DNA of 62,384 nucleotides, filler included, from Sphacelaria rigidula (lineage: Eukaryota), in the NCBI GenBank assembly GCA_964200075.2. It is 9 parts of 9 records of this genome, joined end to end, with 100 filler letters (N's around TTAATTAATTAA, not from the genome) between each part and the next. Parts side by side here need not be neighbours in the genome. Positions count along the whole stretch, not along the records: positions 27,773 to 34,615 come from CAXNAA020017809.1; 8 more parts are not named here. The stretch is one strand, 5' to 3'. The notes beneath the pieces are model-generated. The model searched no databases. It was given only the letters and a program-made list of their open reading frames with translations, and was not told the origin of the DNA. Every line of letters starts with the position of its first letter. Position 1 is the stretch's first letter. Of the stretch, positions 6,844 to 48,643 are shown piece after piece. Both the position numbers and the translations under genes were made by a program.

Positions 6844-6943
6844 NNNNNNNNNNNNNNNNNNNNNNNNNNNNNNNNNNNNNNNNNNNNTTAATTAATTAAN
6901 NNNNNNNNNNNNNNNNNNNNNNNNNNNNNNNNNNNNNNNNNNN
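6844..6943. other. Artificial contig spacer (N-TTAATTAATTAA-N, 100 nt). Identical spacers at 13787-13886, 20730-20829, 27673-27772, 34616-34715, 41559-41658, 48501-48600, 55443-55542
   Basis: Eight identical N-flanked linkers carrying stops in all six frames, evenly spaced. The intervening contigs are 6843 bp (x6) then 6842 bp (x3), consistent with length-sorted concatenation. Confidence 0.98.
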
Positions 6944-17785: not shown

Positions 17786-20700
17786 CAAGGAGCCCCGGTC
17801 CCGAACAGCTTGTAAATATATATAATGTCTGAGATACTATTCACAGACGACTTTCTTCAGTGCGAAGATTCCAATTTCACGAAGTGAAGTTGGTTTCTGC
17901 TGCGGGTAAAAAATCGACTGACTGGTTTTTGCGCCTCCGTTTTTGCGTCAGGATTCTTGCGACCTGATTCTTGCGATCGGATTCTTGCGATAGTTTTTTG
18001 CTAGATTTTTCCACTCTAAAACCCCTATCGATTTCGGTATTTTTGAGAGTAACTTCGTCAAATTGACACCAAACGCATCCTGCTCCAAGGGGGACCTGGA
18101 CAAACAGCAGTTGCCACTGCCCACCTTGTATCATCCTCCAAATCGAAGTCTTGAGTAAGAACCGCCAGCGTTTGGTGCCCATGTACAAAGATGATCTACA
18201 CCGAGTATCATGCTCCAAAATGTACCTGACAGTAGCAATGCTAGCGGATCCTACGTCCTGACAGTCTGTGAGAGTCTAGCAGCCGGCAAGGTGGTTATGG
18301 TGGTGTCCTTCTAGCGATATCAACTTACAGTACACTGGAGCAGAGCTTCCAGGTGAATACTTCGGCGATGGCCTCACCTGCAGTTCGCCGAGATGTTGCC
18401 CCTGCATAATATATGGAAAACGTACCCAACCGTGGACAAAAGATTTCTACAGTCAGTACGAACACGATGTTGGAAGTGTACTGCGCAAAGTCTGTGTGTT
18501 GTCGTCCCATCTATTCTGGACGCCCGTCTCCACCTTTTGGTATATGTGGGCGCATCAGCCGCGGCTGTGTTACCATACAGCTTCGCCCAATATACAGGCA
18601 GCCATTACAGCGGCGGAGGCGGCCTTTCACTCCTGCGTGCGCCACCTGGGGCAAATGCACGCTGTAGCTGTAACACGGACAGGTTTACAAACTGTACGTA
18701 GCAAAATAGCGCGTGGCGAGGAGGTTTATATCTGCGTACACCTTGGCTGCGATACCACGGCTGCACTCATGATGTGGCGAACTGCATAGGACAACGCGAA
18801 ATAAGTGCAGGAGAGGAATAGACTGAGGATGTGACGTTCTGCGGTGTGCTTTGTCACCCTGCACCCTGCTGCTGTGCAGTGAGCAGGTAGTACCGCCACA
18901 GGCGTCACGCCGCAGTTGGTACACAGTATCGGCTTCACACCCAAAGGGTAACCTCTGCATCGAAATTCAATGAAACGCACTGAATCAAATTACACGGGCG
19001 GAGCGCGTTATTTTCGAGCAGCACGCGCGCTAGCGTTTCCGTGTTGCCGACACCGTGCCAGCGCGCTTGTGCACGAAGGCGCTGTACTCTCCTGTGGCAG
19101 CCCGTAACGGTATCGCTCCTCATGTTTCATGACGCTCTATTCGAAAGGACGCAGAAGAAATGCCAGCGAGTCCATCGTGGTTGCCCTTGCAGGTGTGGTG
19201 TACCAGTTTTTCAATCTAGTACTGCCGCATGCTCCGTGCTGTACGAACTAGTATACCGTACCGGTTCAAAACCGGGTATGCATTATATAAACGCCATCGA
19301 CATGCCGTGGTTATCATGAACTGAACTGTGTACGAGGCGCGGGGACCGTAGTTTTTGTCAAGTAATGCAGTACAGGCATTTTTTTTTGTTCGCATGAAAC
19401 ACGTGATTCGAACGAGACACAAAACGAAGCATTTACATGATACCTGGGCGTTTTGGTACTGAAACGAGTCCACCATTCTCTCTACCACATACCGTAAGGA
19501 GATAAATACTACGTCTAAATACAAGATGAGTTAGCGGCAGACCTTCATACTAGAGTAGAGGGCCCAGCCGAGACCGCTCCGGGTTCACCGCCGAATCCGA
19601 GACGGAAACGTCCCAAATACCGAAATAAATTGAAATTGGAAGCGCCCTGGACACATGGCAATCTATATATATATATAAAGATGAAAACTATCTCCGTACT
19701 GATGTTCATTCGGGACGCCATCTATGTTTTCATCATCGTTGAGGACACTCCTCGATCGTTTAGATGGATCAACCTTCAACTGAAGTGATCATTTCTCAAA
19801 CCCCTTCTGAAGAAGGGTGCAGCGTGGTCCCTGGGGAACATCGCGCTCCGGAAGGCTTGTGCTTTTTTACACACTTGATGGGTACTTGCTCTCTCCGTCC
19901 TGCTCTACATATTATTTTTTGCATCTGTAGACATGGGAGACTCGCAGATGTATTCTCATCTGCCGAGCTCTTCCAAGTAATGAATAGGGAATAATCCCAA
20001 AGAGGTATAAATACGAGCAACATGATAATTTAGTTTCTAGGAAGTGCTTCTGGGGAGAGATCAGGGCGAGCAATGTTGGGGCAAAAAAGCGGTCTGGTGG
20101 GCTCTCACAGTTTTAGAGAAACAAAAGGGCGCGATCGGGCTCGGAATGTAATTTCGGATGTATGTACGATGTTTACGGCACGTCGCGCCAACGCCCAATT
20201 CGAGTAGTCCTCCCAGGTAATGTAGGGTGTTTCAAAAATATTATATTATCCCTTTTGGGACCGGGCCTCCAGAACGACCAATGAGGCTGGTCAGGAATGA
20301 CGTGTCTGGCGTCTAAACGAAACAGTGAAGTGTTGCTGAAAATCCGCGGATGTAACTGCAGGGTTATGACGAAGACCGAGAGTTTCATCCGGTCTGTTTT
20401 CAGGTGCAGGGTGCGCATCAGGTGGGTGTACACCTGATGTAGCAAAAAACAATATGTGTCGCGGTAAGGAGCTTCCAACAGGATGCGGCGACCGGCGGGC
20501 CGCCCGCCACTCGTGGCTTTGGATGAAACGTTTGTCCCCATCACCTTGCCACACAGCCCCCTGTGGCCGGGGCGAGCCGCCATTGCCCCCTTTGTTGCAT
20601 GCGGCAAATTCTCTTTGATGGGTACAGAATAGTACAGTACACTGTAGTACGCCTCTCCCACTGAAGCAGCAGCTGCCGCTGGATACTCACTCCCTTGCAC

Positions 20701-21164
20701 GTTCTGGGCAATTCTCAGGTACCGAGATCNNNNNNNNNNNNNNNNNNNNNNNNNNNNNNNNNNNNNNNNNNNNTTAATTAATTAANNNNNNNNNNNNNNN
20801 NNNNNNNNNNNNNNNNNNNNNNNNNNNNNTCAATGGTCAAACGACTAAGGCAAGCAACAAATGAGTACGCCCCCCCTCCCCCCCCCCTTTCCCCCCCGCT
20901 CACCCGCCCGCCCCAGTCTAGAACAGAACACGCGACTCTGGCACCTTTCACCTTCCAAAAGACCTCGGCTAGTTGCCAGGAGTGCTTCTTGCGTCTTGGC
21001 GATTCCGGCTGTGGTGGCAACCATGTCGTTCACACCACCCGCCAGACTCCGAAAAATTCCCTGGAAGGACGGTAGGCCCATGTACGTGGCCACGTGGGCG
21101 TGAGGAAAGGCAGAGGAAACGTTTCACGTGTCGAACAGCTGAACTGACCATAACTCCAGTTAAT

Positions 21165-22050
21165 TCGTTTTTGTACAACTCGGCGGTGAGCTATACGGTA
21201 TAACTCAGCGGTACCATCTTCCACTGGCTGAGCTGTTCGGTATAACTCAACGGCACCTTCTCCCACTAGCTGAGCTATACGCTTGAATTCAGCAGTACCT
21301 TTCCCCATTGGCTGAGCTGTTCGGTATTAACTCAGCGGTACCTTTCTTCACTGGCTCAGGAATACGGCATAACTTAGCGTTATATGTTGCCACACGGGCC
21401 AATCAACAGATGGAGATAAGCCGCGTGAGTACTTCGATTGTGCTGCTCTACTGTTGTGATTTTCATCTCGAACACACACGCACACAGACATCCGGGCGCG
21501 CGCGTTTCACGAACAGCAAGGAGAATTCAACCGCGTGCGACACACGGCGAACAACGCACGATTGGTTTGTACGGCGTTCGCCATGGCCTCCACCGGTGCA
21601 ATAACTGATGAAGGCAGCAGTGAGCCGAATGACGTGGATCTCATCAGCAAGTCATGGCAGCAGCAGCAGCAGCAGCAGTGGTAGCAACAGGAGCAGCAGC
21701 AAAACAGTGGCCTGGTCAGCCAATGGTATCCGTGTTTTGCTAAGCAAGGTCCGTGGTGCTCGTTCCGAGGTCACCGAGGAGCACTTTACACAAGGATTTA
21801 CGCGTCGGATGACTCAACCCACCTTAACTCGAGGTAACTCATTTTCGGTATACCTCAGCGGTTCCGCTTCCCTCTGGTTGAGTAACATACGGTACACAAA
21901 AGCGATATTTTTCTTCCACTGGCTGATCTGTTCGGTAAAACTTAGCGGTACCTTCTTCGACAGGCTGAGTTATTTGGTATGACTGAGCGGTACCTTTTCC
22001 CACTGACTGAGTTATACGGTATGACTCACCAGTGCCTTATTCCACAGGCT
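21165..22050. repeat. Two blocks (about 21165-21375 and 21825-22050) of a 42-bp self-complementary tandem unit
   Basis: Unit about TATAACTCAGCGGTACCTTCTTCCACTGGCTGAGCTGTTCGG, starting at 21199, 21241 and 21283, with a CTCAGC/GCTGAG stem. A remnant lies at about 25390-25442. Confidence 0.85.
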
Positions 22051-23632
22051 GTGCTTTAGACTCAGGATCCATAGATGGGGATGATGTTGTAGTGAATTAA
22101 ACTATTTGCGCGAAGCGGAAAAACTCGAGGACCCGTTGAAAACCAGGCGAAGCACGAAAACATGGGACATGTCCTGCTTCGCTGTACTGCTGCAAAAACA
22201 CACACGCCCTCTCTCACGCGCTGTAGCTATCACTGTTTCTGTGGCGTGTTTAGACCTTGCGAGGACGGGTTGGTTTCCGCTGGGATTGCCTGAGCTGATG
22301 CATTGTCGTTGTGCTCGTCTCTACAAAAAATAATATCAGTCGGCACACAGAGCTGTTTACACTCTGATTATTGAAAACTCAAGCACTTGGGACTGTGAAC
22401 TGGACCAGTTGACACTGTCGATTGAACCGGAACTGGACTTAAACTGTAACTGGCGACGAGGGCGCCAGTTGTCCAGTTTATTTCAAGGTTGCGGTTACCG
22501 GCTATATTTGACATCAATTTTAAAATATAGGGCAGTTCCACGCTATTCCAGGCCACGTTTCTGAGATATTCGAGTTCGATACATCAGGGAACGAACTCAT
22601 CAAGAGCCCAAAAATTGACAGATGACGCATTGTAATGTAAAAACAACTTTGGTAGGGTGGGATTTGGGCTGGGGGTGCATGGTAGGGCAGGGAAGAAGAA
22701 ATAGCCGTCCCCGGGGGATGCTTTCTACAATGAGCTCATGGATGATATCCATCGTTTTGGCCTATACCGTTCAAATGGCGATACGTTTGGATGACATGAA
22801 GTTTTTTCGGGGTTCTTGAAACACGGAAATAATGAAATATAAACAAAACTCTAATCCTTATCCGGAGATTTGATGTACGCATCTCCCATATCAATTGTCA
22901 CCCGGGTGGTCTCCATCGTTTTGGCCTGTTACACACACGAATGGCGATGCACCTAAAAACACGAGCACATCGATAGAACATGCTAACGATAATGCATTTA
23001 TTCCCGCCCCCCAATTTCTTCTCACCCGGGGGAGAAATGACTCCATCCCGTCTCCAGACACGATGAGGGTGTTATCTACTGTTTTCGCCTGTTACATGGA
23101 TATTCATACACGAATAGCGATGTCCCCAAACACGCGGGGGGCATCGTTACAGCGTATCGACCACATACAATTCCCTTACAACTCCATGTTCCCACCATCC
23201 CTTTTCGCGGGAATGAAACAAATGCATCCCTCCCTGAACGATCTCAGCGACAAGGGAGGGGTGTTATCCGACGTTTGACCCATTGCGGTCGGAGAACAAC
23301 AAATCTGAACGCGTGACAGGTACTGATATAAATCCTACAATCTACCTCAAGTATTGATGAGGCATGTATTTTTCTTAACAGGGCTACAGACACCAACCAC
23401 GAGGAAAATATTGAAGGGAAACCAAGCCACACATGGCATTTGTTTTGTCTCCGGCGACGCTCCCGCGGGGCCCCTCACCAGCCAGGGGGGGGTGGGGGCG
23501 TTGGGGCTCGCGGCTCCGCCGCTCGCTATCGATGTTGTTCCACTTAATCGGCGAAGCCGATGAGTTGGAAACATCGAAGTACTGGCCGCTGACGCCGCCA
23601 CGTTAAACTGAACTGGCCAGAGCCGCCCAGGG

Positions 23633-24290
23633 TTATTCCTTTTCAATAATATGGAGGCGGTATTTTTGGAGATCAAGCGCCCCAACAAAGTAAACCAGGC
23701 ATCTGATGATACTGAAACTTGACGTATGTGTGGACGGAAGCCGCAGGTAGGTGTGGACGCAGCATTTTCGGCGACCCAAGGCGTTTTGTGCGTTGCGTGG
23801 CTTGAAAGAATGATTATTCATGATGCTGCAGTGATTCCGAAAACAAGAACACCTCCTGATGACGATTCAGAGAGGGTAACGATATGAAATTCGCGCGGAG
23901 GCAGGAGTAGATCTTGCCACCTTGTTGTTTACATTGGCCCCCTGTTGGTCGAGGCTGGCACCAAGGCGGGAAATAACCACCAGTTAAGGTTCTCCATACG
24001 TTGGAGGCAGATGCCCTTGAGCTTTATACGCCGTGCCGAGCAAGACGCGGCTGCACAACGCAGCCAAGGAGAAGAGTGTCTTCTGTCAAGGACCACTGCG
24101 GACCTGTTCGGGCAGGGGGCAACTTCTCCTCCCTCACAGTGCCAGACTTAGCGTGGCGGTTACCACGACGATCTGAAAATGACAGGGGCAGTTGCTGTAG
24201 TTTTCTTCTATCAGAGTCAATCGGATATTCTTCGGTGGTGTGCTCCCACGTGAAGATGTTTGCCTTTCTCTGGCAGGCGCGTGATCGCCC
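23633..24290. repeat. About 650-bp interspersed repeat; second copy at 33982-34615 (runs off the contig)
   Basis: Colinear high similarity from TTATTCCTTTTCAATA to GGCAGGCGCGTGATC on two different contigs. No conserved ORF. Confidence 0.88.
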
Positions 24291-27200
24291 TTGTGCAGAG
24301 TTTTCACTTGGTTCCAGAATAGGACAGAGAGCAAGTTGCAATTTTAAATTTCTTCACGGATGGATCACGGGTATTCTAGCCCTGTCCAGGCGTGGCTCGC
24401 ATCCTACGGTCAGCGCTACAGTACTAGTTGTACTGACAATAGAAATACACCGTGTCAACTTCGTCGGGTATTACCGTGCGCGAATAGATGTCGTACAATG
24501 AACGCTTCCCCCTTTCGTCGTGATACGCATCCTTTCCCATCCGGCTGTTAAACGCGCGATGGCTGGCCTGTAGCACCACGAATCCGTGCTGATGTGGAGG
24601 CCTCTCTTCCAAGGACGTCTGCTCCTCTAGTCTCATCATATTTTAGGCCTTAGAGTATGACGGTCTCCAATTGACGCCGCGGATGATGAATTAAAATTCC
24701 AGTATAATGCCTCCATAACATTGAAAAGGAACAACACTGCGCCAGTTCACAGCCCTACAAAAAACCATGGTGTGTTGGTTTTTCGTCCCCCGTAAAAAGA
24801 AGAAGGCGCTACCCGACCCATCATTTGCGCGATACCAAACATGGCTGGGTAAAGACACACAACGGTATACGCCGCTTGACCCGCTGGGCCAGACCCCGTG
24901 CTCCGCTGAAAGGAGCAACCCACAGCAGAGGGCGGGTATACTGCACCGTCATTGTACAAATTGCACCCGGCAACATGGCGACCGCTGCTGCTGGCAGGCG
25001 TCAGGGCTCGCGGCCACGGAAAGGCGTAACCAGCCGTAGTGAGACGGAGATATACTGATATACACGAGCATCGCATGCACCCCCGGCGGAGGCAATGTAC
25101 CACTCGCTGTCTACTTGTCTGCTTGCTGCTTCGTTTCCTTGCTGCTGCTCTGTCCATCCCGGTGCGACTGTACATTCATGCACTGTCTATAGTACGTGCG
25201 CTCCAGGTGTGACTCAACCCTGCGAGCTAATCACAAGCATTTTCCACTCAACAGTTCACTGCAAAAGGTCGCAATTCATCGGCGCTAGCTCCTCCCGGTT
25301 CCCTACTGAAGGGCATCTCATTTGTTGAATTTTTCAGTTGACTACAAACCTACATCCCCTATGCATGGGCATTTCGCCAAGTGATAAAGCATAACTCAGC
25401 GCTACCTTTCCCCCACTGGATGAGTTATGCCACATTACTGAGTCAAATCATGACCTATGCGTGAAATGTTTGAAGCTTTCCAAGGGAAATTTGGTACCGG
25501 CGATAGTTGAAGTAGAGGCTTGGTGAGATTTGCATGTTAACAGTCAGCATCTTCGACCTGGAGTATCCTCAGATGAGCCCCAGGCGCACCACCGAGAACG
25601 GGTTGAGCGCAACCGCTTTCGTTCAAAATATCAAGATGTACTATATTATCTAAATGTGTATGAATCAGGGTTGGGGACCTCGAAATACACGGTATCTTGC
25701 CGTTGGGGATGCTGATCGCAGACAGAGAGGTGCTACTCAGCTGCAGCGGTTCGGTTAGCCGGACATATTGTTCCGCAAAGAGTTCAAAGTGCGACAATCA
25801 ATCAATCCATCCATCAATCGACGAGGTTTGGCGCCTTGAAGTGGGTCAAAGTGTTGTGTGGGTTTCAGTGCGGTGGGTTGCCAAACCTCGTATGACCGCG
25901 AATATTGTGAGCATCCGCATTTAAATGCTCTTTCGCTGTCACTTGATATTAGTATAGCGAATCGGACCTGTAACAAATGGCATCGATCGCACTGTCGTGG
26001 GACCCCGCACTTTAGAAGGCAGGACTGTGCTGGGACCCTCACAGTATCCATTGCACTGACGGGCGATGCGTTGCTCGGATCCACCGTGGCAATACGTCAA
26101 CAGCGGTAAAGTCATGGCATTGAAGTACTTCACGGTGCAGTCGTATCAACCAGGTCGCAACTTTCCACGTTTAGAACGAATCATCACGACTACGAATCAC
26201 TAATTCCACGATTTCTTCGGCCTGATTGCCCAAACGGGAAAAAAAAGTTGACCGCTGGTCCAAGGGGTATCCACGCAACTTTGGCGCCATTCCACGTGTC
26301 TGGGCTGCGTTTGCGTGTACCTGGGTTGCAACGCTGAAAACAAAGCCTAGGGATTGATTCGTACGAGTCGGATCAGTTATACTAAAACAAAGTCATTTCC
26401 AGACACATCAGTATTTGTCCGATCCCTGCAACCTTCCCCCTCGATCCTGCACCATGCATCCTAGTTTTCAGCAGTTTTCACCTGAAGAACGGACCATCCA
26501 GTCAACGCCGTCTTAGCAAAGGTTGAAGCTCTCATTCGTGGGGTCAATACGCGGTGTCTAATTTTTCAATGCGATTACATCCGACCAAGTTTAAGAGTTA
26601 AATCGAATGCTCATGGTCGACAAGTTAACAACTGATATCGATTGCGTCAGTTGGTCGATTTTGAAGACACTGCTGTAGCATCGCCGGATGTTGTCGGTCC
26701 GACGTAGTACCAGACACGTCATATTGTTTCCGCGAGTAGTGGCTTCAACCTTATTTCGGGGTGTACCTGCTGTAAAGTCTGACATTCAGGCTAACCGTAG
26801 AAATTAAAAAGATGGTTCAGGATCTGAAAACAAGGTCATGATTTGGTTTGCACGAGGGTGATATTGTTACTCTTCCTTACGCATGGGTGAAATGTTATTG
26901 TTGCTACTGCTGCTGTTGCTGCTGCTGCTTGTTCTTCTTCTCACATTAGCCCGTTTCCAGAAACCTAGCGCCAGTGGTCACAAAGCCACGGCACAAGAAG
27001 ACAGAATACAAGGCAAAATAAATACTATGCCCACGGACAGAAAACATTGCGCCCGAAAGTACGTGAGCCATAAGAGGGGGGGGGGGAGTCAAATTAGGGA
27101 AACTACATAGGGCGGCAAACCGAGCAAGTCAGAGTGAGAGGAGGGCTAGATTTTAGTATGTGTGTCACGCACTGATGGATTCAAACCGCAGCATGGACAT

Positions 27201-29621
27201 CTCCGGTGTTGTATCACCGTGTAGGTTGTGTGGTAGTGTCCGTGTTGCGTCAACGACACTGTGAATAAATCCCAGTAGTACACGAAACCGCGGACCCCCA
27301 CAATCGGTTTCAACCCCTAGATCAAATCTTTTTAGCGCCCATGAACCAGCACGACGCTTTATTTATTCCTCCGAAGGGGGGTCGGAATGGTTGTTTCGGC
27401 GGAAGACAAGGGGTGGCCCGCTAGGCCCTCTCCTGGTGGTATTTGCCCACCATCAGTAGCTGCTCTGCAATCGTGTGCATCACCGTTGTCGTATGCATCA
27501 ACAGCAACGATAGTAGGGTATGAAAGCGTACAACACGAAGCCATTCTGCTCGCCGCAAGCGCCGCGCAAACGCAAGCTTCATTGTATTATCATTATTATT
27601 CTTGGTTTTAGTCTGGAACCTCGGTCAGTGACTGCTGACCGGGCATATTCCCATCACGGCAACCATTTGTATNNNNNNNNNNNNNNNNNNNNNNNNNNNN
27701 NNNNNNNNNNNNNNNNTTAATTAATTAANNNNNNNNNNNNNNNNNNNNNNNNNNNNNNNNNNNNNNNNNNNNCCCCCCCCCAGCCCGCACCGGCCCCGGG
27801 TGCGGAGCGGAGGAGGGGGCCGGCCGCCGCGGCCGGGGAATTAAACTATGACTCCCCTATATCGGAGCAATTTCGATACACTCTAGAACTCAAGCCATTA
27901 AATCCTACGCTTGACCCAAGTCATACATGCCGAGCACGAGCAATGCGTCCAAAAATAAATCCAACAGGGGATAAATAAAAGTTGATATAGCGACAACTTC
28001 GCTTTCCGCAAAAGCGAAGTTACAGTACCTCTGTCCAACACATACAGACACGAACCCAAGACCAGATTTGACCAGCGTACACATCGGCGATGCTATAGTG
28101 GTCCAGTTGTCAATTCACTTACGCGTGCTGCTAAAACCAAGAGGAATAATAATATTACAGTTTGGGTCAGGATGTTCCCGCCTCGTCGAAGGCATCTGAG
28201 CAAGCACGGGGGTGCGGGCGTATGCACTCGCGCCCGTTCGTACATATTCATCAGGGACACACAGCATCAACACCTACTTCGAAATAAGAGAAGGGAAGGG
28301 AGAGGGGGGGGGGCGTACTCATTTGTTGCTTGCCTTAGTCGTGTGACCATTGACCACGCATCCCTTTCAAACGGAGGGGGGGGNNNNNNNNNTCAGCCTG
28401 GAGCGCCGCAGGGCGCCCGGCACCCGCGGGCCAGGGCGCGGGGGGGGGGGGGGGGGGGGGGTTCACCAAGCCTTCATTAAGTAGGGCCCCCAGCGTATCG
28501 CAGCGGTGGTGGTACATGTTTTCCGTGCCAAGTGCCGGTTCGACCGCGAAATTACCCGGAAAAGATCAAAAGCAATTGCAGGAATAGATGACGACGGCAA
28601 AGCCAGAGTAAGGAGACAGAAACGAACAACGATGACATGAGGGAACCGAAAATGTCTCATCATTCACCAGCGGTGTGCGTGCTGGGCATCCTAGACAACA
28701 CCGCACAAACCATTATTTAAACCCAAATCTCAACATCACAGAACATCTGATGAAACGCTACAGCTCAAGAGCGCGCGGAACGCGCGGAACGCGCGCGGGG
28801 GGGACTACGCGGTATAGGGACCGCGTAAAACGCGGCTGATACTGATCGGAACTAATTACTTGTGGCCTCCATCCGACGTCATGGATCAAGAGACCTGTGA
28901 TGAGTATCCAAACAAGAGCAATCGAAAGGCAGTTCAAGACCTCTTCGTGAAAAATACCCATGGGTATAAAAACACGGCCCTGTCGAAAGCCTTCGAGGTT
29001 ACCAGCACGTGGGCGTCCCAGCTGCCACAAGCAACCGCCACTCCCGAACCTGAACATATCCCCACCGTAGCGGACCACACCGGCACCGACCGTGCCCCAC
29101 CCCGCCTGCCCTCCCATTTACAGCACCAAACTGATACTGCAACGCGTTTGCCTCCTTCCTCAGGAACGCAAGAGCGTAGGTTTAGAGGTCTCCACAACCC
29201 CACTATATCGACTCTTATCAAAATTCTCCCAACGTTGTACAAAATCAGTCCCCTAGCGTGATCGAATGTGATCACCTCGAAAACTGCCAAGTCGAAGGAA
29301 CGTGGAAGTCTAAAAAACAAGCACCTCTTTCCCATGTACAAAACCGCCGTACCGACCCTCCTGCATGTCCCACAACAAGGAAACCCCACACAAAACACTC
29401 ACTATCAACAACATACAAGGCACGCGTCAAAAACCAGCACACACCAACAACATCAATCCTTGGACTGGAGCGCATGGACTTCTAGACGAAATATGGATAA
29501 ATAAAAAAGCAGAAAAACAAGACGATTTTCAACCGAAATGGAACAGGGGAACCGACTCCTCACAATTTCCATCAGTGACTCGTATCTCAAAAGAAAAGAG
29601 GGAAAAAATAAACGTTCGACA

Positions 29622-29900
29622 TCACAACTTGCTCCGCGCTCTCCGCGCCCTGAACGAGATCGCGGCGCTTTTGCCGCGCGCGGCGGCAGCCTCTCTGTCC
29701 CTCCCGTGACCCCTACTGTTCTTACTGAGAGCGCTAGTGGCGCCATTGCCATTATTCTTGTCGAACAGCACGTGCTTCAGGTTTTGATCCACCATCTCCG
29801 CCGGCCGCTTCTCCGTCGCCACGCCCAACACCTTCGCGGGTACACCTGCCGCTGTAGAGTGAGGGGGCAAGTCTCGCAACACCACGGATCCTGCGGCAAC
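29622..29900 (-). CDS. cysE: Serine O-acetyltransferase (CysE/SERAT family), last exon
   Basis: Acceptor CCGCAG|, phase 0, matching the upstream exon. VAAGSVVLRDLPPHSTAAGVPAKV is the final left-handed beta-helix turn of SAT. Ends RARRARSKL-TGA. Confidence 0.9.
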   Translation of the reverse strand, partial: VAAGSVVLRDLPPHSTAAGVPAKVLGVATEKRPAEMVDQNLKHVLFDKNNGNGATSALSKNSRGHGRDREAAAARGKSAAISFRARRARSKL

Positions 29901-30244
29901 CTGCGGAGTTTTCATGTTTAATTGATTTATTCATGGAGGGGGGGGGGGGACGAGGAGGTCAGGGCGGATCAGTCATCCCGCTGCGAGCACAGCAATACTC
30001 CAACTAGTCACGTTTTTTTCGTTGAATAGATCAATGAATCAATCACGACATTCGGTTTGATATTTGGGGTACATACACACAAAGGTTGAATGAAGTCTAC
30101 GAGTATACGGTACAGTAGTAGTAGTTTTTTTTTTTTCCCATAGAGCGAGCGTGAAGTAATGAAATATTGTTCAATCTTTTCTCCAAGGCCGTAACGGTCA
30201 GGAACACACCTCTGTCGAAATCTATTCTGTCTGCATGTGTGGTA

Positions 30245-30565
30245 TTTTTTTCATTTTATTTGTCGCACTTTGAACCCCTCCCCTTCCTCGGGACGAGTCC
30301 CATGGTCTCAACGGGTCAATCCATATCTCCCCGGTACACGCCTTGCATTTTGGTCTCGCGGATTGGGTTATGACTATCAGCACTCCCACATCGCGTCAAC
30401 TCACGTCAAACAAACCCAGTCAACTACTTTGTTTACCCACGTCCTCACGCTTTCCACGGTGGGAATCATACACAACGAAGGAAAATCTCGACGCATCGGG
30501 AATCGAACCGTCGTCCTCTCCACCCTAGTGGCGACAGTCGGTCCATTACACCATCGGGGCGCGGC
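30245..30565 (-). mobile_element. tRNA-derived SINE (family A) inside the SAT intron
   Basis: Reverse complement reads GCCGCGCCCCGATGGTGTAA...GGTTCGATTCCCGATGCG...GGGGTTCAAAGTGCGACAAATAAAATGAA, colinear with 804-1140. Confidence 0.85.
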
Positions 30566-30930
30566 TGTATGGACGCCCTTCACTACGAAGCTTCGAACCA
30601 CACAATCTTTCGAACCCAGTTGAGCCGAAGCCTCGCGGTGCAAAACAACCATCGCACCGCCCATCTACCATCCCCTGCTACACACGCTCAACAAGTTTCA
30701 GTTTCGTCGATTCTCACGTTGTGTGCCGCTCGTGTCCTGACACACTGAAGAGCAAACCCAACTTAACCGAGTTGGAAGGGTATCGTGAGTATTGACCTCT
30801 CGGGCTCGACTGTCGCAACTGACATCGAAGCACGTATGGAAGGACCGCATTACTTTTACACGTCCAACCAAGCTTCAGCTTCATGGGTTCTCAAAGCGTT
30901 GGATTTCACGCGTGTGTTTGAATTCCTTGA

Positions 30931-31048
30931 CCCTTTTGGAATCCACTGACGATTTTTGTTGCAGCGAATCGGCATCATCTTGACTTGGAAATGACTGAAA
31001 ATGATGCCGATACACAAAAACATGAATCGCCAACGGGTTCCAAAAGGG
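30931..31048. mobile_element. Diverged copy of the TTAA-type mini-MITE
   Basis: TTGA|CCCTTTTGGAA ... TTCCAAAAGGG|TTGA, with internal GAATCGGCATCAT / ATGATGCCGA. Confidence 0.7.
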
Positions 31049-33503
31049 TTGACTCAGAAGGCTGAACGGGGTTGTCATCGTACGTCGACGGTACAGCTCG
31101 GGGAAAGGATGCTAGAAGAACCGCTCTGGGCACTGCTGTCCCATTCTATTGACAATGTCTGCGGTTTCATGTTGTGTCCTGTGGTAGAGGTGACCTGCAC
31201 ATATTGCAACACCACGCAGACAGCACACGTACGAGTCTTCCCCGCGTGTACGCGCTTTCACTCCTCTCCTCGGGAGCTTCGTTCCATGTCACTCCCACCA
31301 TGCCCCTCTCTTCTTTCTCTCTCATTTGCTGTACTCGGTGTTAAACTTTGATATGAGCAACAGCGAACTCCAGAATGTTGAAAACAATTGGCATATCTGT
31401 CATGACCGAGAATGGAACTCATGATCCGAGTTGTTTTTGGCGCTCCGCGGCAATTTAGTTTCATCGCCCCAAGGAGTCAAGACCATGGACGTGCACTTCC
31501 TTCACCAGCACATGTACCAAACAAGTGGGGAAAAGGCCGTCTCTAGCGTGTGTGGGTGTTGACAAAACGCAACGCACGAATACGGTGTTGTACTTGAAGT
31601 GTGTAAAGAGAAAATCTCCAAATGGTGAATTAAAATGTGGCATGGCTGACATGTCTAAGGATCGAGCCTTCCAAGCGTGTACGAGTAGAGGGAAAGCTCC
31701 ACATAATCGAAATGAAAAAGTGGTACGACTGGCATGGCCGAGAAATGAACCCATGATCCGACTTGTGTTGAGCGTTCTGTACCAATTGAGCTCACGTGGC
31801 CATGGAAGGCAAGACGATGAAAGTGCAGCCCAAGTACCAACGCATGACCGAACACATCGCAGTAGGGCACCTCTCGCGCGCATTAGTACGCTATTGTACT
31901 GAGTGCTGTACTCAAAAATACGTGCTCGGAGAGGAAACATCCCAGGAGTGAAGAAGTGGCGTGAAAGGCATGCTTGGGAATCGAACCCGTGATGCGAGTT
32001 TGTTCTCACCGTTTGGCAAATTGCTTTTACTGTCCGTCCGTCACGCTTTGATTCATGATTGAATTGTCTTCCCTTCGGCACTTTTCATCGCCGCATTTTC
32101 TGCTGGTGGTTGAACTCGGCCCGCCATCACCGGCTCTATTACACATGAGTGAGCGCGCGCATTTCCAAAGTCGGGACAAGAACTTTCGCGCAGCAAGGCA
32201 TTTTATCATGATTCCGTTCCTTCGAACTCCTACAAACCTCCTCCGCTCTTGGTAGCCCCTGCTCTGCAGCAAGTACACGGCTTCTCCTTTCCAAGCGACC
32301 AACTACTGACACGTGCATGGCATGCCTCGACCAACCGTCCTCCTGCGAAAAGGTGATATTCCTCGACGGACACTCGTGGGATATACATTTTATTTCATGT
32401 GATGGTTTCCACATCACCCCCCCCACCCTTTAATCAGCGTCTTCGCAGGTCCTCTTTGAACAACAGGCTCGTAGGAGTAACCTTTTTTGCCGGCTAACGG
32501 TGAGAATGCCCTACCTGTTTCACGTGCACTTCACGTCAGTTGGGTCCCCGGGCCAATGACCTTCACACAAGAGTTTCCTGTGTGTGAGCTCTGCTTCGAA
32601 ATCACCCACCAGTTGCCTGGTCCCCCACCATTTTCGCGACTTTTTTTGCCCCCCCTTGACTTTTTTCGTCGCCCTTGGTGGGAGCTGGGACCTGAACTCG
32701 GGGTGTTCTGTTCATGAAGCATAGGAGTTATCTCTTGGTATCGCCAATATGAAAAGGAAAATTGATCCCTCGACGGACACTCGCGGGATTTTTTCCCTTC
32801 CATGTGGTGATTCCACCACTTCTCGATACGCCTGAAATCGATACGTAGGTACTCTCGACGCGAAACCCACGTGCTTGCGTCGGGGAGCAAAAGGCCAGTG
32901 CACAAAAGAAAAAATGAACTCTTCCCCTGCGAAGGCAGAGGAAGGGGGGAAGCTTCATTTCGCCCTTCTGCACAGGTTTCTTGCTCTGTGAGACGAACAC
33001 GTGAGTTTTTTTCACCGAGAGTACCTCTCGATTTCAAACGGGTGGGAAAGGAGGACGATTGATTGAGGCATGCGTTGAACGTGTCGGAGTTCAATCAGCC
33101 GAAAACAGGCGCCAGTGCACGCAATACAGACCAGTGGCGAGTGGAAGTGGAGGGGGTTTGACGGGAATCAAAGGAATGGCATAAAGACAAGAGGAATGCC
33201 TCGCTACGCGACAAATTAAAAACGGATCCCGACTCTGGGAATGCGCGCGCTCACCGGAAGGATACCGGCCTCATTTTCGTCGTCACGTCTTTTTTTTCAG
33301 CACCCCTAGCTGGACTACCCGGGTCCGTTCTGTTCTGTTCACGTCAGTACGATTTCTTCCTGTGCATGTTATGAGTATTTTTTTTAATTATTTTTTTGCA
33401 ACAAACGAGGACCCATCAAACAATAATCAATTCAACAAATATCTTCACGAACGAATAAAAAGCTGGCACTTCAATGACACGAACAAACGAAACAAATACC
33501 CAC

Positions 33504-33843
33504 CTTGCAGCCGTCACCGACGTGTATGTTTCCCAAAATCATGGATCCGGCACCAACCAGGATCCCGCACCCCAGCTTCGGGTGCCGATCACCCCGGGTC
33601 TTGCCGGTTCCCCCCAGAGTTACCCCGTGGAGGAACGTGCAGTCATCTCCCACAACCGCCGTTTCGCCAAACACCACCCCGGTAGCGTGATCGATCATCA
33701 CGCCCTTACCCACTTTACAGCCGGGGTGCACGTCCATGCCAAACACTTCTGACACGCGGCTCTGGATAGCCAGAGCCAGAGCCCTTCTTTCTTCCTTCCA
33801 CAGGACGTTGGCGATGCGGCTCGCTTGGAGGCCGAGGTAGCCC
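33504..33843 (-). CDS. cysE: Serine O-acetyltransferase (CysE/SERAT family), penultimate exon; the 5' exons are not in this contig
   Basis: TTCCAG| acceptor and AAG|GTGGGT donor. GYLGLQASRIANVLW...QSRVSEVFGMDVHPG...IDHATGVVFGETAVVGDDCTFLHGVTLGGTGKTRGDRHPKLG carries the diagnostic SAT motifs DxHP, DHATG and GVTLGGTG..RHP. Confidence 0.97.
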
Positions 33844-34744
33844 CTGGAATACGCACGCAACCAAAATAGGACGACGTGGCGTTGGCAGAGGCGGCGACGG
33901 AGAAAAAACGGACCCCGGAATTATGATATGTTGGTATATTTAAATTGACCAGATAAACTGGTGAACTTACCCAATTCAATGTTATTCCTTTTCAATATTA
34001 TGGAGATTAGGCGCCCCAACACAGTACACCAGAGGTCTGATAATACTGAAACTTGACGTATGTGTGGACTGAAGCCGCAGGTAGGTGTTGACGCAGTAGT
34101 TTCGGCGACCCAAGGCGTTTTGTGCGCTGTGACGTGAAGAAATGATTATGCACGATGCTGCAGGGATTCCGAAAACAAGAACACCTTCTGATGACAGTTC
34201 TAGAGGGTAACGGTATGAAATCCGGAGACAGGAGTGGATCTTGCTATCCTCGTTGTTTACATCGCCCCCCTGTTTGTCGAGGCCGGCACCAAGGCCGGAA
34301 AAAAACGCTAGCTAAGCTTCTCCATATGTTAGAGGCAGATGCCTCTGAGTTTTATACGCCGTGCCGAGTAGGACGCGGCCGCGCAACGCAGCCAAGGAGA
34401 CGGGTGTCTTCCGTCAAGGACAACTGCGGATACGCTCGGGCAGGGGGCAATGTCTCCTCCTTCACAGTGCTAGACCTAGCGCGGGCGTTACCACGACGGT
34501 CTGACAATGACAGGGGCAGTTGCCGTAGTTTCTTTTATCAGAGTCGATCAGATATTCTTCCGTAGTGTGCTCCCACGTGGAGATATTTACCTTTTTGGCA
34601 GGCGCGTGATCACCCNNNNNNNNNNNNNNNNNNNNNNNNNNNNNNNNNNNNNNNNNNNNTTAATTAATTAANNNNNNNNNNNNNNNNNNNNNNNNNNNNN
34701 NNNNNNNNNNNNNNNTCATTAGACGATTAATACTATATGCGGAT

Positions 34745-35460
34745 CACGGCCCAACTCGTCTATGTCGATGAGATAATGCTTTTAGAGCTAAAATCCGTTT
34801 TTAGGCTGGCCCAGCTCGTATCTCATTTCGGAAAGTGGGAGGTATGCCTCGTTTTTCCCGATCGATAAACTTCGGGATCAAACGTGCCCAGGGATGAGCG
34901 GTAACACGCGAAAATACTTTCGAATATCACCGACTGCGAAAAAAACTACGAAAATCTCCTATTTCAGATGAAAACTGATGTAACCCTTACTGGGATACCT
35001 TCAACATTTGGGTGCTCATTACGATTTTCTCATACACTCGGACGCTTCTTATAGTCAGAACACGGACTCTCTGATAACTGCCCTTTTTTAACCTTCGATC
35101 ACGGATTTTTGGCGGAATCCGGGCCTTTGCAGATTAGGCTTCCTCTGAAATATTTACCATGCTTTCCAAGAGGGTTGTAGGACATTTTCCCAATTTTTCG
35201 TGCGCCCACTTTTTGGGGGGGAAGCGGATTCCCGATTTTTCTAGTCGCCCCAAAAATCTTCGACTTGTCGGGAAAAAGTAACGTAAGCACGAAAGATCGG
35301 GAAAATGCGCGAGAATCCTCTAGGAAAGCATAGCACATTTTTCAGAGGAGGCCCGATCCGCCGAAGCCCGGATTGCGCCAAAAATCTGCGCCAAAAATTT
35401 ACGGTGAAAAAAGGGGTTTCATAGATTCCGTGTCCTGACTAAAAGAAGCGGCCCTACGAG
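34745..35460. repeat. Fragments of a repeat family shared with 1-800, 11680-11790 and 12690-12800
   Basis: Shared strings GCCCAACTC..TAGGCTGGCCCAGCTCGTA, GTCAGAA..CGG.CTCT, CGGATTTTTGGCGGAA and GGGATGAGC. Confidence 0.6.
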
Positions 35461-40940: not shown

Positions 40941-41694
40941 GTAAGAGTTCTTGATTGAAGCACACGAGTGTTACTGGACTGAAAACTGGACTAAAATTGC
41001 CAGGGATGTGCACGGATTAACCCTTTGGGAACCCTCCCCTCCCGTCCCCGGGCCAGACGCCTCATTATGAGAAGCCCTGACAAAGAAGAAAATATGGAAA
41101 CAGAAAAGACTGACGGCAACCATTTTCACTGTGGAGGACCAAAGAAGATTCCAGACGCACGTACCAAAAATGAAATCCCGGAATGGTCCAGTTGGGTTTG
41201 TCCAATGATAATGATATCACGCGACGGGCGAAGTGTGTCCAATTGTGTGCATCGACGAAACTCTCGCAAAACGGTACAAACTCCTGTACATGTGATTTTC
41301 GTCAGTAAAATCTGTGAAAAACCTCAATTCGAGGTCGGTGCACCAATACGTCACATTAGTATACTTGAAATTAGAGTCGCGCACTATTATACTTGAAATT
41401 AGAGTATTGCACCGTTTCGGCGGGCTGCATCATCAAGAGTCGGCAAGCTTAGGAACCCACACTATACGGCCGGCGACAGTGATATGGCGGAGCACGTGAA
41501 AATCCCGTCGCCCCATGTGGAAGCGCTAAAGAGCGACCCATATGCAATTCACGTTCAGNNNNNNNNNNNNNNNNNNNNNNNNNNNNNNNNNNNNNNNNNN
41601 NNTTAATTAATTAANNNNNNNNNNNNNNNNNNNNNNNNNNNNNNNNNNNNNNNNNNNNAAGCAAAAAATGAGAACGCCCCCCCCCCCCCTATCG

Positions 41695-42944: not shown

Positions 42945-44024
42945 CTATACTGCCCGCGGCGCCAGCATTGAGCCCGACACTAGAGAGGTCGGTCCGACCT
43001 GCACCGCCCGTTGTGGAGCAGCAGTCCCTGCGGCTGAGCCGGACCCAGAACCGGACCCTTGCTGACGCCGCTGCCCCTGCTGCTGCTGTTGGGAACTCGA
43101 CTGTACACCTCCACCGCTGGAGGATCCACCTCCGCCACCACCCCGATTACCTTTCCTTTCTTTGTGACTGCGAGGGCGCGCGGCACTCGTCTGCCCAGAC
43201 TCCCCCTCAGTAGGCGTTGGGCACTTCCGTGCGATGTGGCCTACCTGGCGACACTGATAGCAAGTAATATTGGCGGCGGCACTGCCTGCGGATTTTGATC
43301 CGCGGTTATGCGAGCTCGAAGACTGCGGCGGCAAAGTGGATGATTTTCCGAATACTTCGACCCGCCGCCATGCCTGAGTTTCAGACACCACGGTATCCAT
43401 AACTAAATACGGGTCTAACTTCCAGTTTGTTTCGTGCTGTAACTGCACAAGCACGGCCTGCTTAAATTCCGCCGGTGCCAGACCCTCCAGCACCGCTTTC
43501 GTGACCACCGCAGCGGGCCCTGGGCGGAATTTCCAATCGGAGGAACGATAAACCATCTCTACGTTGGGGTTTTCCGAAAAATATGTCTCCAACTTACCCA
43601 TGATGGACTCCACCCTATCACGCATGGTCCTCCCCTTGTAGTTCATTGCGACAGCCCTCGCCACGGCGGCGGACGCCTGTGTAAGCTCTACCTCCGCGCC
43701 TGCCGCATGCCCTGCGTGCTTCTTTATCGCTGCGGCCAACTGCAGCGGCGTTATGGTATGATTTTCATGCAGTCTTCTCGCGAAGACGCGTTGGAGGGGG
43801 GTAGGCACGAGTTGCGCCATGGAAACCATCTGATGCCTCACCGCACCCCCCGCATTCGTATATTCCACCCTCTTCTTGTATTCCACGTATTTCGTGTAGA
43901 ACGAACGAGAAGTACCCTCAGAATACATATTCCCGTGACTGGGCGGCCGCAACTCTTCCCTTAGAACGACTGGAGTGACAGTCGCCTCCGCTGGCTCTAT
44001 TGCCGGTACCTCGGTAGTCGACAT
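42945..44024 (-). CDS. gag: Retrotransposon Gag with CCHC zinc knuckle
   Basis: About 360-aa open frame from MSTTEVP, containing CYQCRQVGHIARKC (Cx2Cx4Hx4C) followed by a Gly/Ser/Gln-rich tail. Confidence 0.88.
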   Translation of the reverse strand: MSTTEVPAIEPAEATVTPVVLREELRPPSHGNMYSEGTSRSFYTKYVEYKKRVEYTNAGGAVRHQMVSMAQLVPTPLQRVFARRLHENHTITPLQLAAAIKKHAGHAAGAEVELTQASAAVARAVAMNYKGRTMRDRVESIMGKLETYFSENPNVEMVYRSSDWKFRPGPAAVVTKAVLEGLAPAEFKQAVLVQLQHETNWKLDPYLVMDTVVSETQAWRRVEVFGKSSTLPPQSSSSHNRGSKSAGSAAANITCYQCRQVGHIARKCPTPTEGESGQTSAARPRSHKERKGNRGGGGGGSSSGGGVQSSSQQQQQGQRRQQGSGSGSGSAAGTAAPQRAVQVGPTSLVSGSMLAPRAV

Positions 44025-44589
44025 GCTCGAGCGGAAAATCGAAGATTTCTGAACCTTCTCGAACTTAAAATTCATACCTGCCTTCTCCGCCGCTCCACAC
44101 AGCCCTGGGGTTCCTATTAACACCCGCTGCACGCAGCTCCAGCAAGTCTCCAGTCTGGACCAACCACGGGCCAGCCACCTTTGCAGCTACCTCAGCTTGA
44201 AACCTCCTCACGCGCCCGTGAAGCTATATGCTCGAAGCTCTCACAAGCTGTCCAGATTCCTACCCGCTAAAACATTTCCAGCAGTCTCCTGACGATAGCA
44301 CTCCTAGCACTCCTAGCACTCCTAGCACAAATATCGATATTGTGACGCCAGCAGGTTGCTAGTATTGCAGCGTCTAAATGGTGTTGAGGGACTCCCCAGT
44401 TTCACTGGCCTCAAGGTCTCAGTTGTCAGCCTTCACAGCACCTTATCATTCCCGGAGTAGACAGCTGCAGCTCCGTACCGTCAGGTCTGGGCTACACAGC
44501 AAGGCTCATCATCCACAGGATACCCTTGTCCCCTGGTCATCATCCAGGATCCATTATATACTCAACGTGACGGCGTGATCGCCACACTA

Positions 44590-47500
44590 CCGTAGGTTGC
44601 ATACGATACCTCACTTACATAAGATGCGACACCCCTGTAAAAAATATACACAATACCACACCCGTGTGCTATCTTTTTGGGTGCCGAAATGATCACTTTT
44701 TTATCACACGGTGACTTAAGATATCACACCCCTAGGGTTTAGCCGCATATCATCCACGGATCCCCTGATTTATCACACGGGTGTGATCGCCCCTGAGCAA
44801 GCACACAAACAAGCGAACACAACCTGCGGGCCACGATGGTGGAGACCGGCAATATCATGAAGAGAGATGCAGCATCTAACCCTGCTGAAAGTACCGCGCC
44901 TCACACTGCGGTGGGCCAGACTCCAGCAGCTACTTCACGCTCCATAGCGTCGTTTTTTCAACCCGCTGCACAGGAAAGTGTGCCCCCTGCTGAGAGTGCC
45001 CCAACGACCGTGCATGACACCACATGCACTGGTGAGGCTTGCACATCAGAATCCCCAGCAGCCAATCCGGTAGTACCCGCTGCACCTGCCTGCGCACGGG
45101 CTGCAGAGGCTCGCACAGGAAAACCTACTGCTGCTGAGACTCCTACAGCATCCGCTGCGCCTGCCACCGCACGTGCTGCTGAAATCCCTACACCACCGCC
45201 CACAACGGGGAAGCCGGCCACACCTCCCGCCACCGAATCTACAAGCGCGTCCACAGTTGAGAACTACGCAGCAGCACTCCATTGCGCTGACCCCTCATGC
45301 AGCAGGAAGGCCTTGTGGGCTGAACCAGAAAAGGCGAACCCGGAGTTTTGCGGCGTGCACGCGAACTCTGGTGACATCTACATTCAATCAAGGTGTGCGG
45401 AGTGTCTCTTCTCAGCCGCGTTTCGATGTACTGTATGTCTACCTGTGTGCATATGTGTTTTTGAGTTCACATGGCCTTGGCTGACCGAAATCAATTTCAT
45501 GTGTGATTTTCACATGCTGCTGTCTGGCTCGCATTTTCGCTCTTGTGAACGGTACCAAAGCGACACACTTGGTTACAAGACAAGACTACCGGTATATTAG
45601 CTTGTTCTGTGAGTAAGTGCGTTTTGTGATCTCTCTTTTTGACCTCACCAAAAACAGTGAGAAAACGTTGCAACCACTTGCGCCAGTACCACCTTCAGGC
45701 TTTGCCCCGCTTTGTGCCAGATAATCAGGAGGTGTCGTTAGCTCCCTTATCAGTCTGTATACCTTATTTTCTGGTAATCGTTCTGTGAGCTTTTTGAGTC
45801 CTGTTCGATAATCAACAACTTTCAGCATATCTTGTCTCGTGGTCGTTCAAGCTCGCACATCCGTACACACACTGCACTCCATCGCGTGTGCGTTACTTTT
45901 GTCATTACATCGAAATGCACCCCTTTTTCAGGAGACCACGGCTGCCTCAAGCTTCGACCACAGCAACCCGAGCGGCGCCCGTCGGCGACACTATGTTCCC
46001 TGGAAAGTCTGAAGAGTGGACAGATGGTTTCGGTGGGTCTCTCGACGGCGTGCCGGCGGAGCGCAAAGGCAAGAGGAAAAAGAGCAGCTGGAGATGGAGC
46101 CGCCGGACTTTCCGATTGAGTTTGGTGGTGGCCAGAAGCGCAAGCGGTACGCGTTGGCTTTCAAAGTGAACGCGATTAAGTACGCGACCAAAAAAAGCCC
46201 AGGGGCGCTCGGGCCGGATGTAACTATCGGCATATCGTATGCTACGAGGGTGCTGGGGATTCCTGAGAAGGAGAAGGTCACACTTTCCGCCTGGATAAAG
46301 GACCACGAAAAGTATGAGAAGGAGCTGGAACGGGCGGACAAGCTCGGGGCCAAAGCCGGAGTATTAAGTCGTTGAACACCGGCAGGGTCAGGTCAAACGC
46401 GGAACGTCTGGATCAACGATCTTCGCACCGATGAGACCTCTGCCCGCGTCTCGACAAGGATGATCAAGAGGAAGGCTGTTTCAATCAACCCGCTTTTTTT
46501 CGGCCCGAGTCCTGCAGCGAATGACCTGGAGGGCAGCAAGAAGTACCGCAACAGCCAGACTTACTGGTGCAGGAGGTTGTTGAAGAAGTACCCTGTCATT
46601 GCGGGTGGTCACTCGACAAGGCCAGAAACTACCTTCCGGGTGGCCTGCGATTGCCATAAAGGCGGTGAAAGATTGGAGGGCGCTTCGTCACGGAGGCATC
46701 GACGGGGAAGAGCAGTGTACGGAGGGGGCAGCGAACAGTGGGCCGTCGGAACCACCTCTGCTGTTCTCGGACGAACAGTGTTACAACATGGACGAAACCC
46801 CCCCGTGGATGGAGCCAGCTGCCAAGTCAACGATGGCGGTAAGAACGATGGTGCTGTGTCATACACTTGTGCTCTTCTTTTCACTCTAGCCTCCTGTAAC
46901 TTGTTCTTACCTTCCATCGTTTCCCTTGTCACTGTATGCAGTGGGCATTGTGCCAACATCTTCCTGCCGTAGGACTCAGTGTCCAGGCAGTAGCTCTCGA
47001 TGGCATAGGTTTTGTGCTGTGGCTGCGCGCGAAATCCTTCGACGGCCGCCTGCATCACGACTGTTTTGCGATATCAACACGTTCCCTTGCACATAAAGAG
47101 GTATCATGGCCGATCGACGAATGCATTTTTGTCTTCGCGTTTGCTTTCCATTTTCTCCCCGTTTCTTCTACTTGTTGCAGCACACCGGTGATAAGGAGGT
47201 CGGCATCAAAACCGGTGGCAAGGAAAGGTTGCGCATTACTGCCGTTCTTGAAGCGAACATGAATGTTAAGAAGCTACGGGGGATGCTCATCTTCAAGGGC
47301 AAGGCCACGGCGCCGGGGAAAGCTCCGGCTGCCAACAGCATCGAGCGAGAATTCAAGGTGTACAAGGACAAGAAGGGGAAGGTATACCCGCGGGGTCTTG
47401 TATACGCCGTGGAAGACAAGGCGTGGCACACACAGCGGGTGTTCAAGGACGTTTGGTTGCCCCAAGTGTGGAACCGCCGCCCGGGGCGGGAGGGGGCCGT

Positions 47501-48500: not shown

Positions 48501-48643
48501 NNNNNNNNNNNNNNNNNNNNNNNNNNNNNNNNNNNNNNNNNNNNTTAATTAATTAANNNNNNNNNNNNNNNNNNNNNNNNNNNNNNNNNNNNNNNNNNNN
48601 AGAACCACACCCACCCCGCGGGGGGGGCTGCCGACCGAAAAGG

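Follow-up and report, generated by a model that had tools for sequence, protein, structure and literature searches.

The 3′ part of a gene for serine acetyltransferase (SAT) lies on the minus strand of a 62,384-nucleotide stretch of the genome of Sphacelaria rigidula (assembly GCA_964200075.2), referred to below as the window. Two exons of this gene were found in the part of the window between positions 27,773 and 34,615 (CAXNAA020017809.1), and the encoded protein ends in Ser-Lys-Leu (SKL), the canonical tripeptide of the type 1 signal for peroxisomal targeting (PTS1). SAT performs the rate-limiting, regulatory step of cysteine synthesis. The plant isoforms described are cytosolic, plastidial or mitochondrial, and SAT control in plants operates through such compartment-specific isoforms and through an Ile-dependent complex with O-acetylserine (thiol)lyase. 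Brown algae have a very large demand for sulfur, which they need for sulfated polysaccharides.

Gene Structure

The gene part consists of an exon at 33843-33504 joined over a 3603-nt GT..AG intron to a last exon at 29900-29625. The penultimate coding exon (33504..33843, minus strand) encodes the last part of the helical domain together with the core, a left-handed beta-helix (GYLGLQASRIANVLW...HVGDGCK), as delimited by matches to NF008349 and Hexapep and by the edge of a contig piece at 33843. Its translation reads GYLGLQASRIANVLWKEERRALALAIQSRVSEVFGMDVHPGCKVGKGVMIDHATGVVFGETAVVGDDCTFLHGVTLGGTGKTRGDRHPKLGCGILVGAGSMILGNIHVGDGCK; an AG at 33845-33844 precedes it, a GT at 33503-33502 follows it, and its first base finishes a codon opened in an upstream exon. 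The intron (29901..33503, minus strand) extends from this GT to the AG at 29902-29901.

The last exon is translated as VAAGSVVLRDLPPHSTAAGVPAKVLGVATEKRPAEMVDQNLKHVLFDKNNGNGATSALSKNSRGHGRDREAAAARGKSAAISFRARRARSKL and is followed by a TGA stop (29622..29624, minus strand). Its first segment (29739..29900, minus strand) is the conserved SAT C-terminal region (VAAGSVVLRDLPP...VDQNLKHVLFDKNNGNGA), which reaches to the end of an E. coli-type SAT according to the NF008349 alignment and tblastn against orthologues. In the NF008349 profile, which has 273 positions, residues 2-51 of this exon fall on positions 221-270, placing the canonical SAT end near ...GNGA. The protein then continues into a low-complexity basic C-terminal extension (TSALSKNSRGHGRDREAAAARGKSAAISFRARRAR; 29634..29738, minus strand), the length and sequence of which vary among the orthologues in an alignment of 18 tails. 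The tripeptide SKL (AGC AAG TTG; 29625..29633, minus strand) closes the protein, with Arg at position -4, Ala at -5 and Arg at -6, so that the whole end reads ...RARRARSKL. Beyond the canonical SAT end, the extension measures approximately 38 amino acids (last-exon residues 55-92; 29738-29625). The first-pass annotation had put it at roughly 55 amino acids, a figure that is too long.

The same annotation had described a spliced SAT in the interval. This holds for the two 3′ exons, which match SAT profiles, but the N-terminal exons are not in the window. An exon for SATase_N (PF06426), the N-terminal domain of approximately 120 amino acids that is present in the orthologues P0006 and P0009-P0015, could be located at no place in the 62-kb window: neither tblastn with the full sequences of three orthologues nor a six-frame search with a hidden Markov model built from 10 orthologue N-termini revealed one; weak matches at 36628-36355 were at chance level. 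The window thus covers only two 3′ exons of the SAT gene, and the upstream exons lie at a distance of over 28 kb or on another sequence.

Transcript Evidence

Ten sequencing runs from three studies matched positions 29350-29900, none of them recorded as RNA, and contigs were placed on the N-bounded part 27773-34615 only. In three of the runs (X1, X3 and X7, from one organism and two studies), one contig per run (2322, 2475 and 2475 nt, respectively) spans the SAT splice. These contigs join 33502-33843 to 28471-29898 and skip 3603 nt, bounded by CT..AC on the plus strand and therefore by GT..AG on the gene strand. A four-letter ambiguity at the joint is compatible with the exon boundaries at 29900 and 33504. 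Depth in the intron bins of 31437-33497 was 0-3, against approximately 200-224 on the exons in the same runs. X1, X3 and X7 were taken as RNA because their contigs are spliced and their intron bins almost empty.

The contig piece 28471-29898, within which the TGA stop lies, shows no gap and no differing letter in any of the three runs. It also sets the minimum extent of the 3′ untranslated region (UTR; 28471..29621, minus strand), which runs for at least 1150 nt beyond the TGA. At the other end, the contigs continue for 524-670 letters 5′ of 33843 and match nothing in 27773-34615; this additional sequence could hold an N-terminal domain together with a 5′ UTR. A further run, X5, from an organism denoted B, yielded two short, low-depth 3′ UTR contigs only, which is too little to be informative.

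A candidate alternative donor (CA/GTAAGA; 29724..29725, minus strand) had been pointed out inside the extension, with the suggestion that transcripts might splice from 29725 to a different terminal exon. The GT exists where it was placed but is unused in the assembled transcripts: the contigs pass through 29725-29724 without a joint and show no such splice, and any use of the site would be confined to a rare isoform. The stop after SKL and the predicted intron were confirmed in spliced RNA from three runs of two studies, bearing out the earlier prediction of a SAT that ends in ...RARRARSKL-TGA.

Enzyme Identity

The window exon 33842-33511 matched Hexapep (7.8e-08), NF008349 (1.1e-45; profile positions 107-215 of 273) and TIGR01172 (4.7e-42). 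The scores against the SAT profiles are below the whole-protein cut-offs, as expected of a fragment. The exon is 85-93% identical to Ectocarpus spp.- and Discosporangium-labelled proteins and contig open reading frames (ORFs), 84% identical to a Choristocarpus protein and 76% identical to a Vaucheria-labelled protein, which marks the window as brown-algal. The residues D160, H162, D174 and H175 (numbering of the orthologue P0009), which we take to be the catalytic residues of SAT, lie in the core DIHP...DHATG and are invariant in the 33 sequences of alignment A1. The window exon carries these core Asp and His residues, reading MDVHPGCKVGKGVMIDHATG. The window holds the 3′ half of this gene, which is expressed and codes for a brown-algal serine O-acetyltransferase of the CysE/SERAT type (EC 2.3.1.30). 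Its enzyme core is that of an ordinary SAT; only the ends are unusual.

C-Terminal Tails of Related Proteins

To place the SKL end in context, complete brown-alga-type tails were compared, 18 in total with the window included; additional tails were obtained from last-exon searches. Five proteins that run into the intron and are without the last exon (P0004, P0005, P0007, P0008 and P0012), a partial one that stops in the linker (P0013) and a fragment identical to the window (P0126) were kept outside the count. Ten tails end in SFL (P0132, P0134, P0123, P0122, P0135, P0133, P0006, P0009, P0010 and P0011) and three in SVL (P0124, P0130 and P0131). SKL terminates three tails (the window, P0125 and P0127), while CKL (P0128) and ARL (P0129) were found once each. 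All 18 tails finish with Leu, and Arg occupies position -4 in 17 of them. In P0127 and P0128, positions -6 to -4 are K-V-R.

The first-pass annotation had asked whether orthologues keep a [SA][KR][LM]-type terminus. All 18 ends are of the PTS1 type, but the canonical form [SAC][KR]L is found in just five (SKL three times, CKL and ARL), the rest being SFL or SVL. Upstream, a linker of approximately 40 amino acids separates the ...VDQNL.HV... block from the last four residues. It is low in complexity, with many G, S, N and R residues, and variable in length, and the linkers of different tail subgroups cannot be aligned with one another. The SFL/SVL group shares an extra (V/M)R(G/T/D)IE..K block upstream of its end. 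Judged from these alignments, the retention of the last four residues while the linker diverges is the pattern of a putative terminal short linear motif.

The C-terminal Ile of other SATs has been lost, as the first-pass annotation had stated. This residue is described as highly conserved in CysE and as essential there for anchoring the tail in the active site of the sulfhydrylase (PMC9547175), and it is described as critical for the cysteine synthase complex (PMC13040420). It is the commonest last residue in two wider samples of SAT homologues (51 of 120 and 67 of 148). None of the 18 brown-algal tails ends in Ile; they carry Leu after a long extension in its place, and the window protein, with its ...RSKL end, is thus without the hallmark of a complex-forming SAT.

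Canonical PTS1 ends were rare in the same wider samples, being present in one of 120 and three of 148 homologues. Examples from outside the brown-alga group are P0066 (ARSKL), P0244 (ARSRL), P0263 (RAKL) and P0230 (EAKL), and the more distant homologue P0014 ends in RSNL. Judging by these ends, PTS1-tagged SAT may extend beyond brown algae. When the P0009 tail was searched against Protein Atlas, only generic bacterial SAT fragments were returned, at values of 0.90 or below.

Two further observations were made among the homologues. Several eukaryote-like ones, including P0016 and P0145, are much longer proteins of approximately 585 amino acids in which the SAT core is followed by a pair of EF-hands (PF13499); these would represent a calcium-binding SAT fusion, distinct from the tail studied here. 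A Ser-dependent reading of the S-x-L-COOH end (phosphorylation of the Ser, a 14-3-3 mode III site or a class-I PDZ ligand) was also considered and was rejected, as the CKL and ARL orthologues are without the Ser.

Proposed Targeting to Peroxisomes

The reading that we favor, with confidence somewhat above even, is that a conserved PTS1 would send at least part of the SAT pool to peroxisomes, where the enzyme would be free of the Ile-dependent cysteine synthase complex. The end of the window protein fits the PTS1 consensus [SAC][KRH][LM] (PMC6203080), and it does so at the true ORF end of a spliced mRNA. It has R-A-R at positions -6 to -4, a basic-nonpolar-basic pattern; this pattern has been reported to enhance weak PTS1 tripeptides (PMC9542071). 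Table 1 of PMC9542071 counts SKL, ARL, CKL and SNL among the established plant tripeptides and gives SFL as a newly verified one, and the -SVL end of maize SK1 was needed for its peroxisomal location (PMC5091354). In these plant reports, every tripeptide seen in the clade (SKL, CKL, ARL, SVL and SFL) is accordingly an experimentally supported PTS1. The substitutions among the tails, with S, C or A at -3, K, R, F, V or N at -2 and a fixed L, are within the tolerance of PEX5. Regarding the import machinery, Pex5, Pex7 and Pex14 are reported for Ectocarpus (PMC6203080).

The remainder of the protein was assessed in the Ectocarpus orthologue P0009. The SAT profile of 273 positions is matched there from position 8 to 268 by residues 24-285, and in an AlphaFold2 model built with the 33-sequence alignment A1 (mean pLDDT 84.5), residues 17-286 are confident. 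Residues 287-333, the counterpart of the extension in the window protein, have a pLDDT of less than 50 and no secondary structure, which is consistent with a flexible, exposed tail in the model. The SAT profile starts at residues 24-26, at profile positions 6-9, in P0009, P0006 and P0014, and these proteins therefore have no N-terminal presequence.

Based on these features, the following course is proposed. SAT would be synthesised in the cytosol and, as judged from the Ectocarpus orthologues with their N-terminal overhang of only approximately 16 amino acids, would carry no targeting peptide at its N-terminus. It would then fold and oligomerise. The PEX5 receptor would next bind the exposed tail, and at least some of the SAT pool would enter the peroxisomal matrix. 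Inside, SAT would acetylate serine with acetyl-CoA to yield O-acetylserine, outside the Ile-dependent cysteine synthase complex.

Several points weigh against this reading. First, 13 of the 18 tails are non-canonical (SFL or SVL), and these ends have been demonstrated as PTS1 in plants only, in no stramenopile. The R-G-I-E...K-R-S-F/V-L block of the SFL/SVL group could, from its sequence, serve another binding partner. The tag is not universal among relatives, as the Vaucheria-labelled P0015 ends in ...EKKE. The 18 tails also represent fewer than 18 independent lineages, since many come from close relatives (several from Ectocarpus) and most are contig ORFs. The N-terminus of the window protein itself lies outside the window and might bear a competing N-terminal signal in Sphacelaria rigidula. 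Finally, it is by inference that we speak of binding to PEX5, of import, of catalysis, of where the acetyl-CoA comes from and of what becomes of the O-acetylserine.

Alternative Explanations

The best surviving alternative, which we consider unlikely, is that R-[S/C/A]-x-L-COOH docks to O-acetylserine (thiol)lyase as a variant peptide in which Leu stands for Ile, or acts as another C-terminal binding or regulatory motif, and that the enzyme is cytosolic. The C-terminal tail of SAT is a known docking and feedback element, and the active site of the partner is described as binding a terminal carboxylate together with a branched hydrophobic side chain (PMC9547175, PMC13040420). Such a role would suit the invariant Leu in 18 of 18 tails and the conserved RGIE..K block of the SFL/SVL group, and F or V at -2 is unusual for a PTS1. 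However, Ile is reported to be the essential and highly conserved anchor of docking (PMC9547175), yet it is present in none of the 18 tails. A small residue at -3 and Arg at -4 are not known as needs of a docking peptide, whereas the tails follow PTS1 rules at these positions (S, C or A, and R), and all six tripeptides observed are validated PTS1s in the plant reports cited above. Of the other C-terminal motifs, those based on Ser phosphorylation, 14-3-3 or class-I PDZ binding are ruled out by CKL and ARL.

It is also quite improbable, in our estimation, that the PTS1 works but is weak or conditional. In that case most of the SAT would be in the cytosol, and its peroxisomal pool would be minor or would depend on stress or stage, or else the SKL, CKL and ARL lineages would import the enzyme and the SFL and SVL lineages would not. 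The orthologues do mix strong tripeptides (SKL and ARL) with weak ones (SFL, SVL and CKL), and in plants weak tripeptides are reported to lean on upstream residues and to target partially or slowly (PMC9542071). On the other hand, 17 of the 18 tails have Arg at -4, which together with basic residues at -5/-6 is the context reported to enhance weak signals.

A neutral read-through tail, left without function after the loss of an ancestral stop and ending in SKL by chance, would account for the low-complexity, poorly conserved linker and for a window tail that is unlike the Ectocarpus tail save in its last four residues, but it is highly improbable, given that those four residues are held though the linker diverges beyond alignment and that every one of the 18 tails closes with a tripeptide validated as a PTS1 when canonical PTS1 ends are so scarce among SAT homologues at large.

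Repeats and Surrounding Sequence

Repeated sequences were observed in the SAT intron and in its 3′ flank. In the intron, an interval at approximately 30290-30530 is present in many divergent copies, with joints and loose ends, and its summed contig depth reaches approximately 20,000 in the RNA-like runs; summed depth is very high over 30063-30520. A second interval, 28231-28470, lies 3′ of the UTR; its summed contig depth reaches approximately 134,000, it likewise occurs in many divergent copies, and the transcript contigs stop at approximately 28300-28470. Both 30290-30530 and 28231-28470 are highly repeated, transcribed elements. Positions 30480-30555 of the intron look tRNA-like by eye; ARAGORN found no tRNA in 29000-35000, and no Rfam family was found in 28000-34600, with 0 matches each. 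Also in the intron, 30930-31049 holds a 52-nt inverted repeat, 77% complementary, with a 16-nt spacer and raised depth in runs, which may be an element resembling a miniature inverted-repeat transposable element.

For the DNA around the gene, 84 of 150 ORFs with a length of 95 amino acids or more, namely those at 20294-29398 and 34146-60702, were scanned against Pfam. All matches were transposon-like or brown-alga-specific. In the DNA 5′ of the SAT exons, a zf-CCHC ORF was found at 42948-44186 (minus strand; 1.7e-05) and a DDE_1 transposase ORF at 47097-48128 (plus strand; 2.4e-15). The ORF at 44797-45597 (plus strand), also 5′ of the SAT exons, has a weak EsV-1-7 cysteine-rich motif that is under the cut-off (0.00017). 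The region 5′ of the SAT exon looks like a transposable element-rich intron or intergenic DNA.

The window also includes N-filled blocks at 6844-6943, 13787-13886, 20730-20829, 27673-27772, 34616-34715, 41559-41658, 48501-48600 and 55443-55542. Each is made up of two runs of 44 N with 12 bases between them, and the blocks recur with a period of 6942-6943, a regularity that suggests masking and not assembly gaps.

Novelty and Implications

A literature search covering full-text papers, with subscription papers and the supplements of genome papers outside its scope, found no paper on a peroxisomal SAT or on peroxisomal O-acetylserine synthesis. Two surveys of stramenopile peroxisomes were inspected, supplements aside. 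Neither "acetyltransferase" nor "cysteine" occurs in the text of the first (PMC6203080); the text of the second (PMC7710942) is without "cysteine" and has "acetyltransferase" only in histone H4 acetyltransferase and acetyl-CoA acetyltransferase. The algal SAT is a known enzyme with a known signal, in a combination and an implied compartment that the papers searched do not describe.

Whether the product is also formed in that compartment is a further claim, which we put at slightly less than an even chance: brown algae, and perhaps other ochrophytes in view of the RSNL, ARSKL and ARSRL tails, would make O-acetylserine inside peroxisomes. If this is true, peroxisomal acetyl-CoA (from beta-oxidation) and serine pools would be linked to sulfur assimilation by a SAT that has traded the Ile-mediated complex for a PEX5 tag. 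Peroxisomes would then be a fourth compartment for eukaryotic cysteine synthesis, and a tagged, Ile-less SAT found lineage-wide would mean that sulfur assimilation is wired differently in brown algae. The known metabolic repertoire of stramenopile peroxisomes, sparsely charted so far (PMC6203080, PMC7710942), would grow as well.

Comparison With Known Systems

The brown-algal enzyme shares its fold and family with the plant and bacterial SATs (CysE/SERAT). Residues 25-284 of P0009 align to the solved structures 4n69 (4.8e-74) and 3gvd (1.9e-72), and 1t3d is a further solved SAT of the same family. In contrast to these enzymes, it has no C-terminal Ile but an extension of approximately 38-43 amino acids, predicted to be disordered, with a PTS1-type end. 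It also differs from the plant SATs in that the algal orthologues are without a plastid or mitochondrial presequence.

With the PTS1 cargo of plants and stramenopiles, the algal SAT shares the tripeptide type or a validated variant of it, basic upstream residues and a flexible, exposed tail as predicted, although SAT is absent from the PTS1 cargo lists in the text of both stramenopile surveys (PMC6203080, PMC7710942). A change of tripeptide between orthologues has a parallel in a stramenopile alpha/beta hydrolase, whose orthologues likewise switch between SRL, ARL and SKL (PMC7710942). For the non-canonical ends, the closest counterpart is the maize UDP-glycosyltransferase SK1, a pathway enzyme that a C-terminal tag has newly brought into peroxisomes, which likewise ends in SVL and whose orthologues carry SVL, STL or no signal (PMC5091354). 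SK1 differs from the algal SAT in belonging to an unrelated enzyme family and to a land plant, and its peroxisomal location was established by experiment, whereas that of the algal SAT is a prediction.

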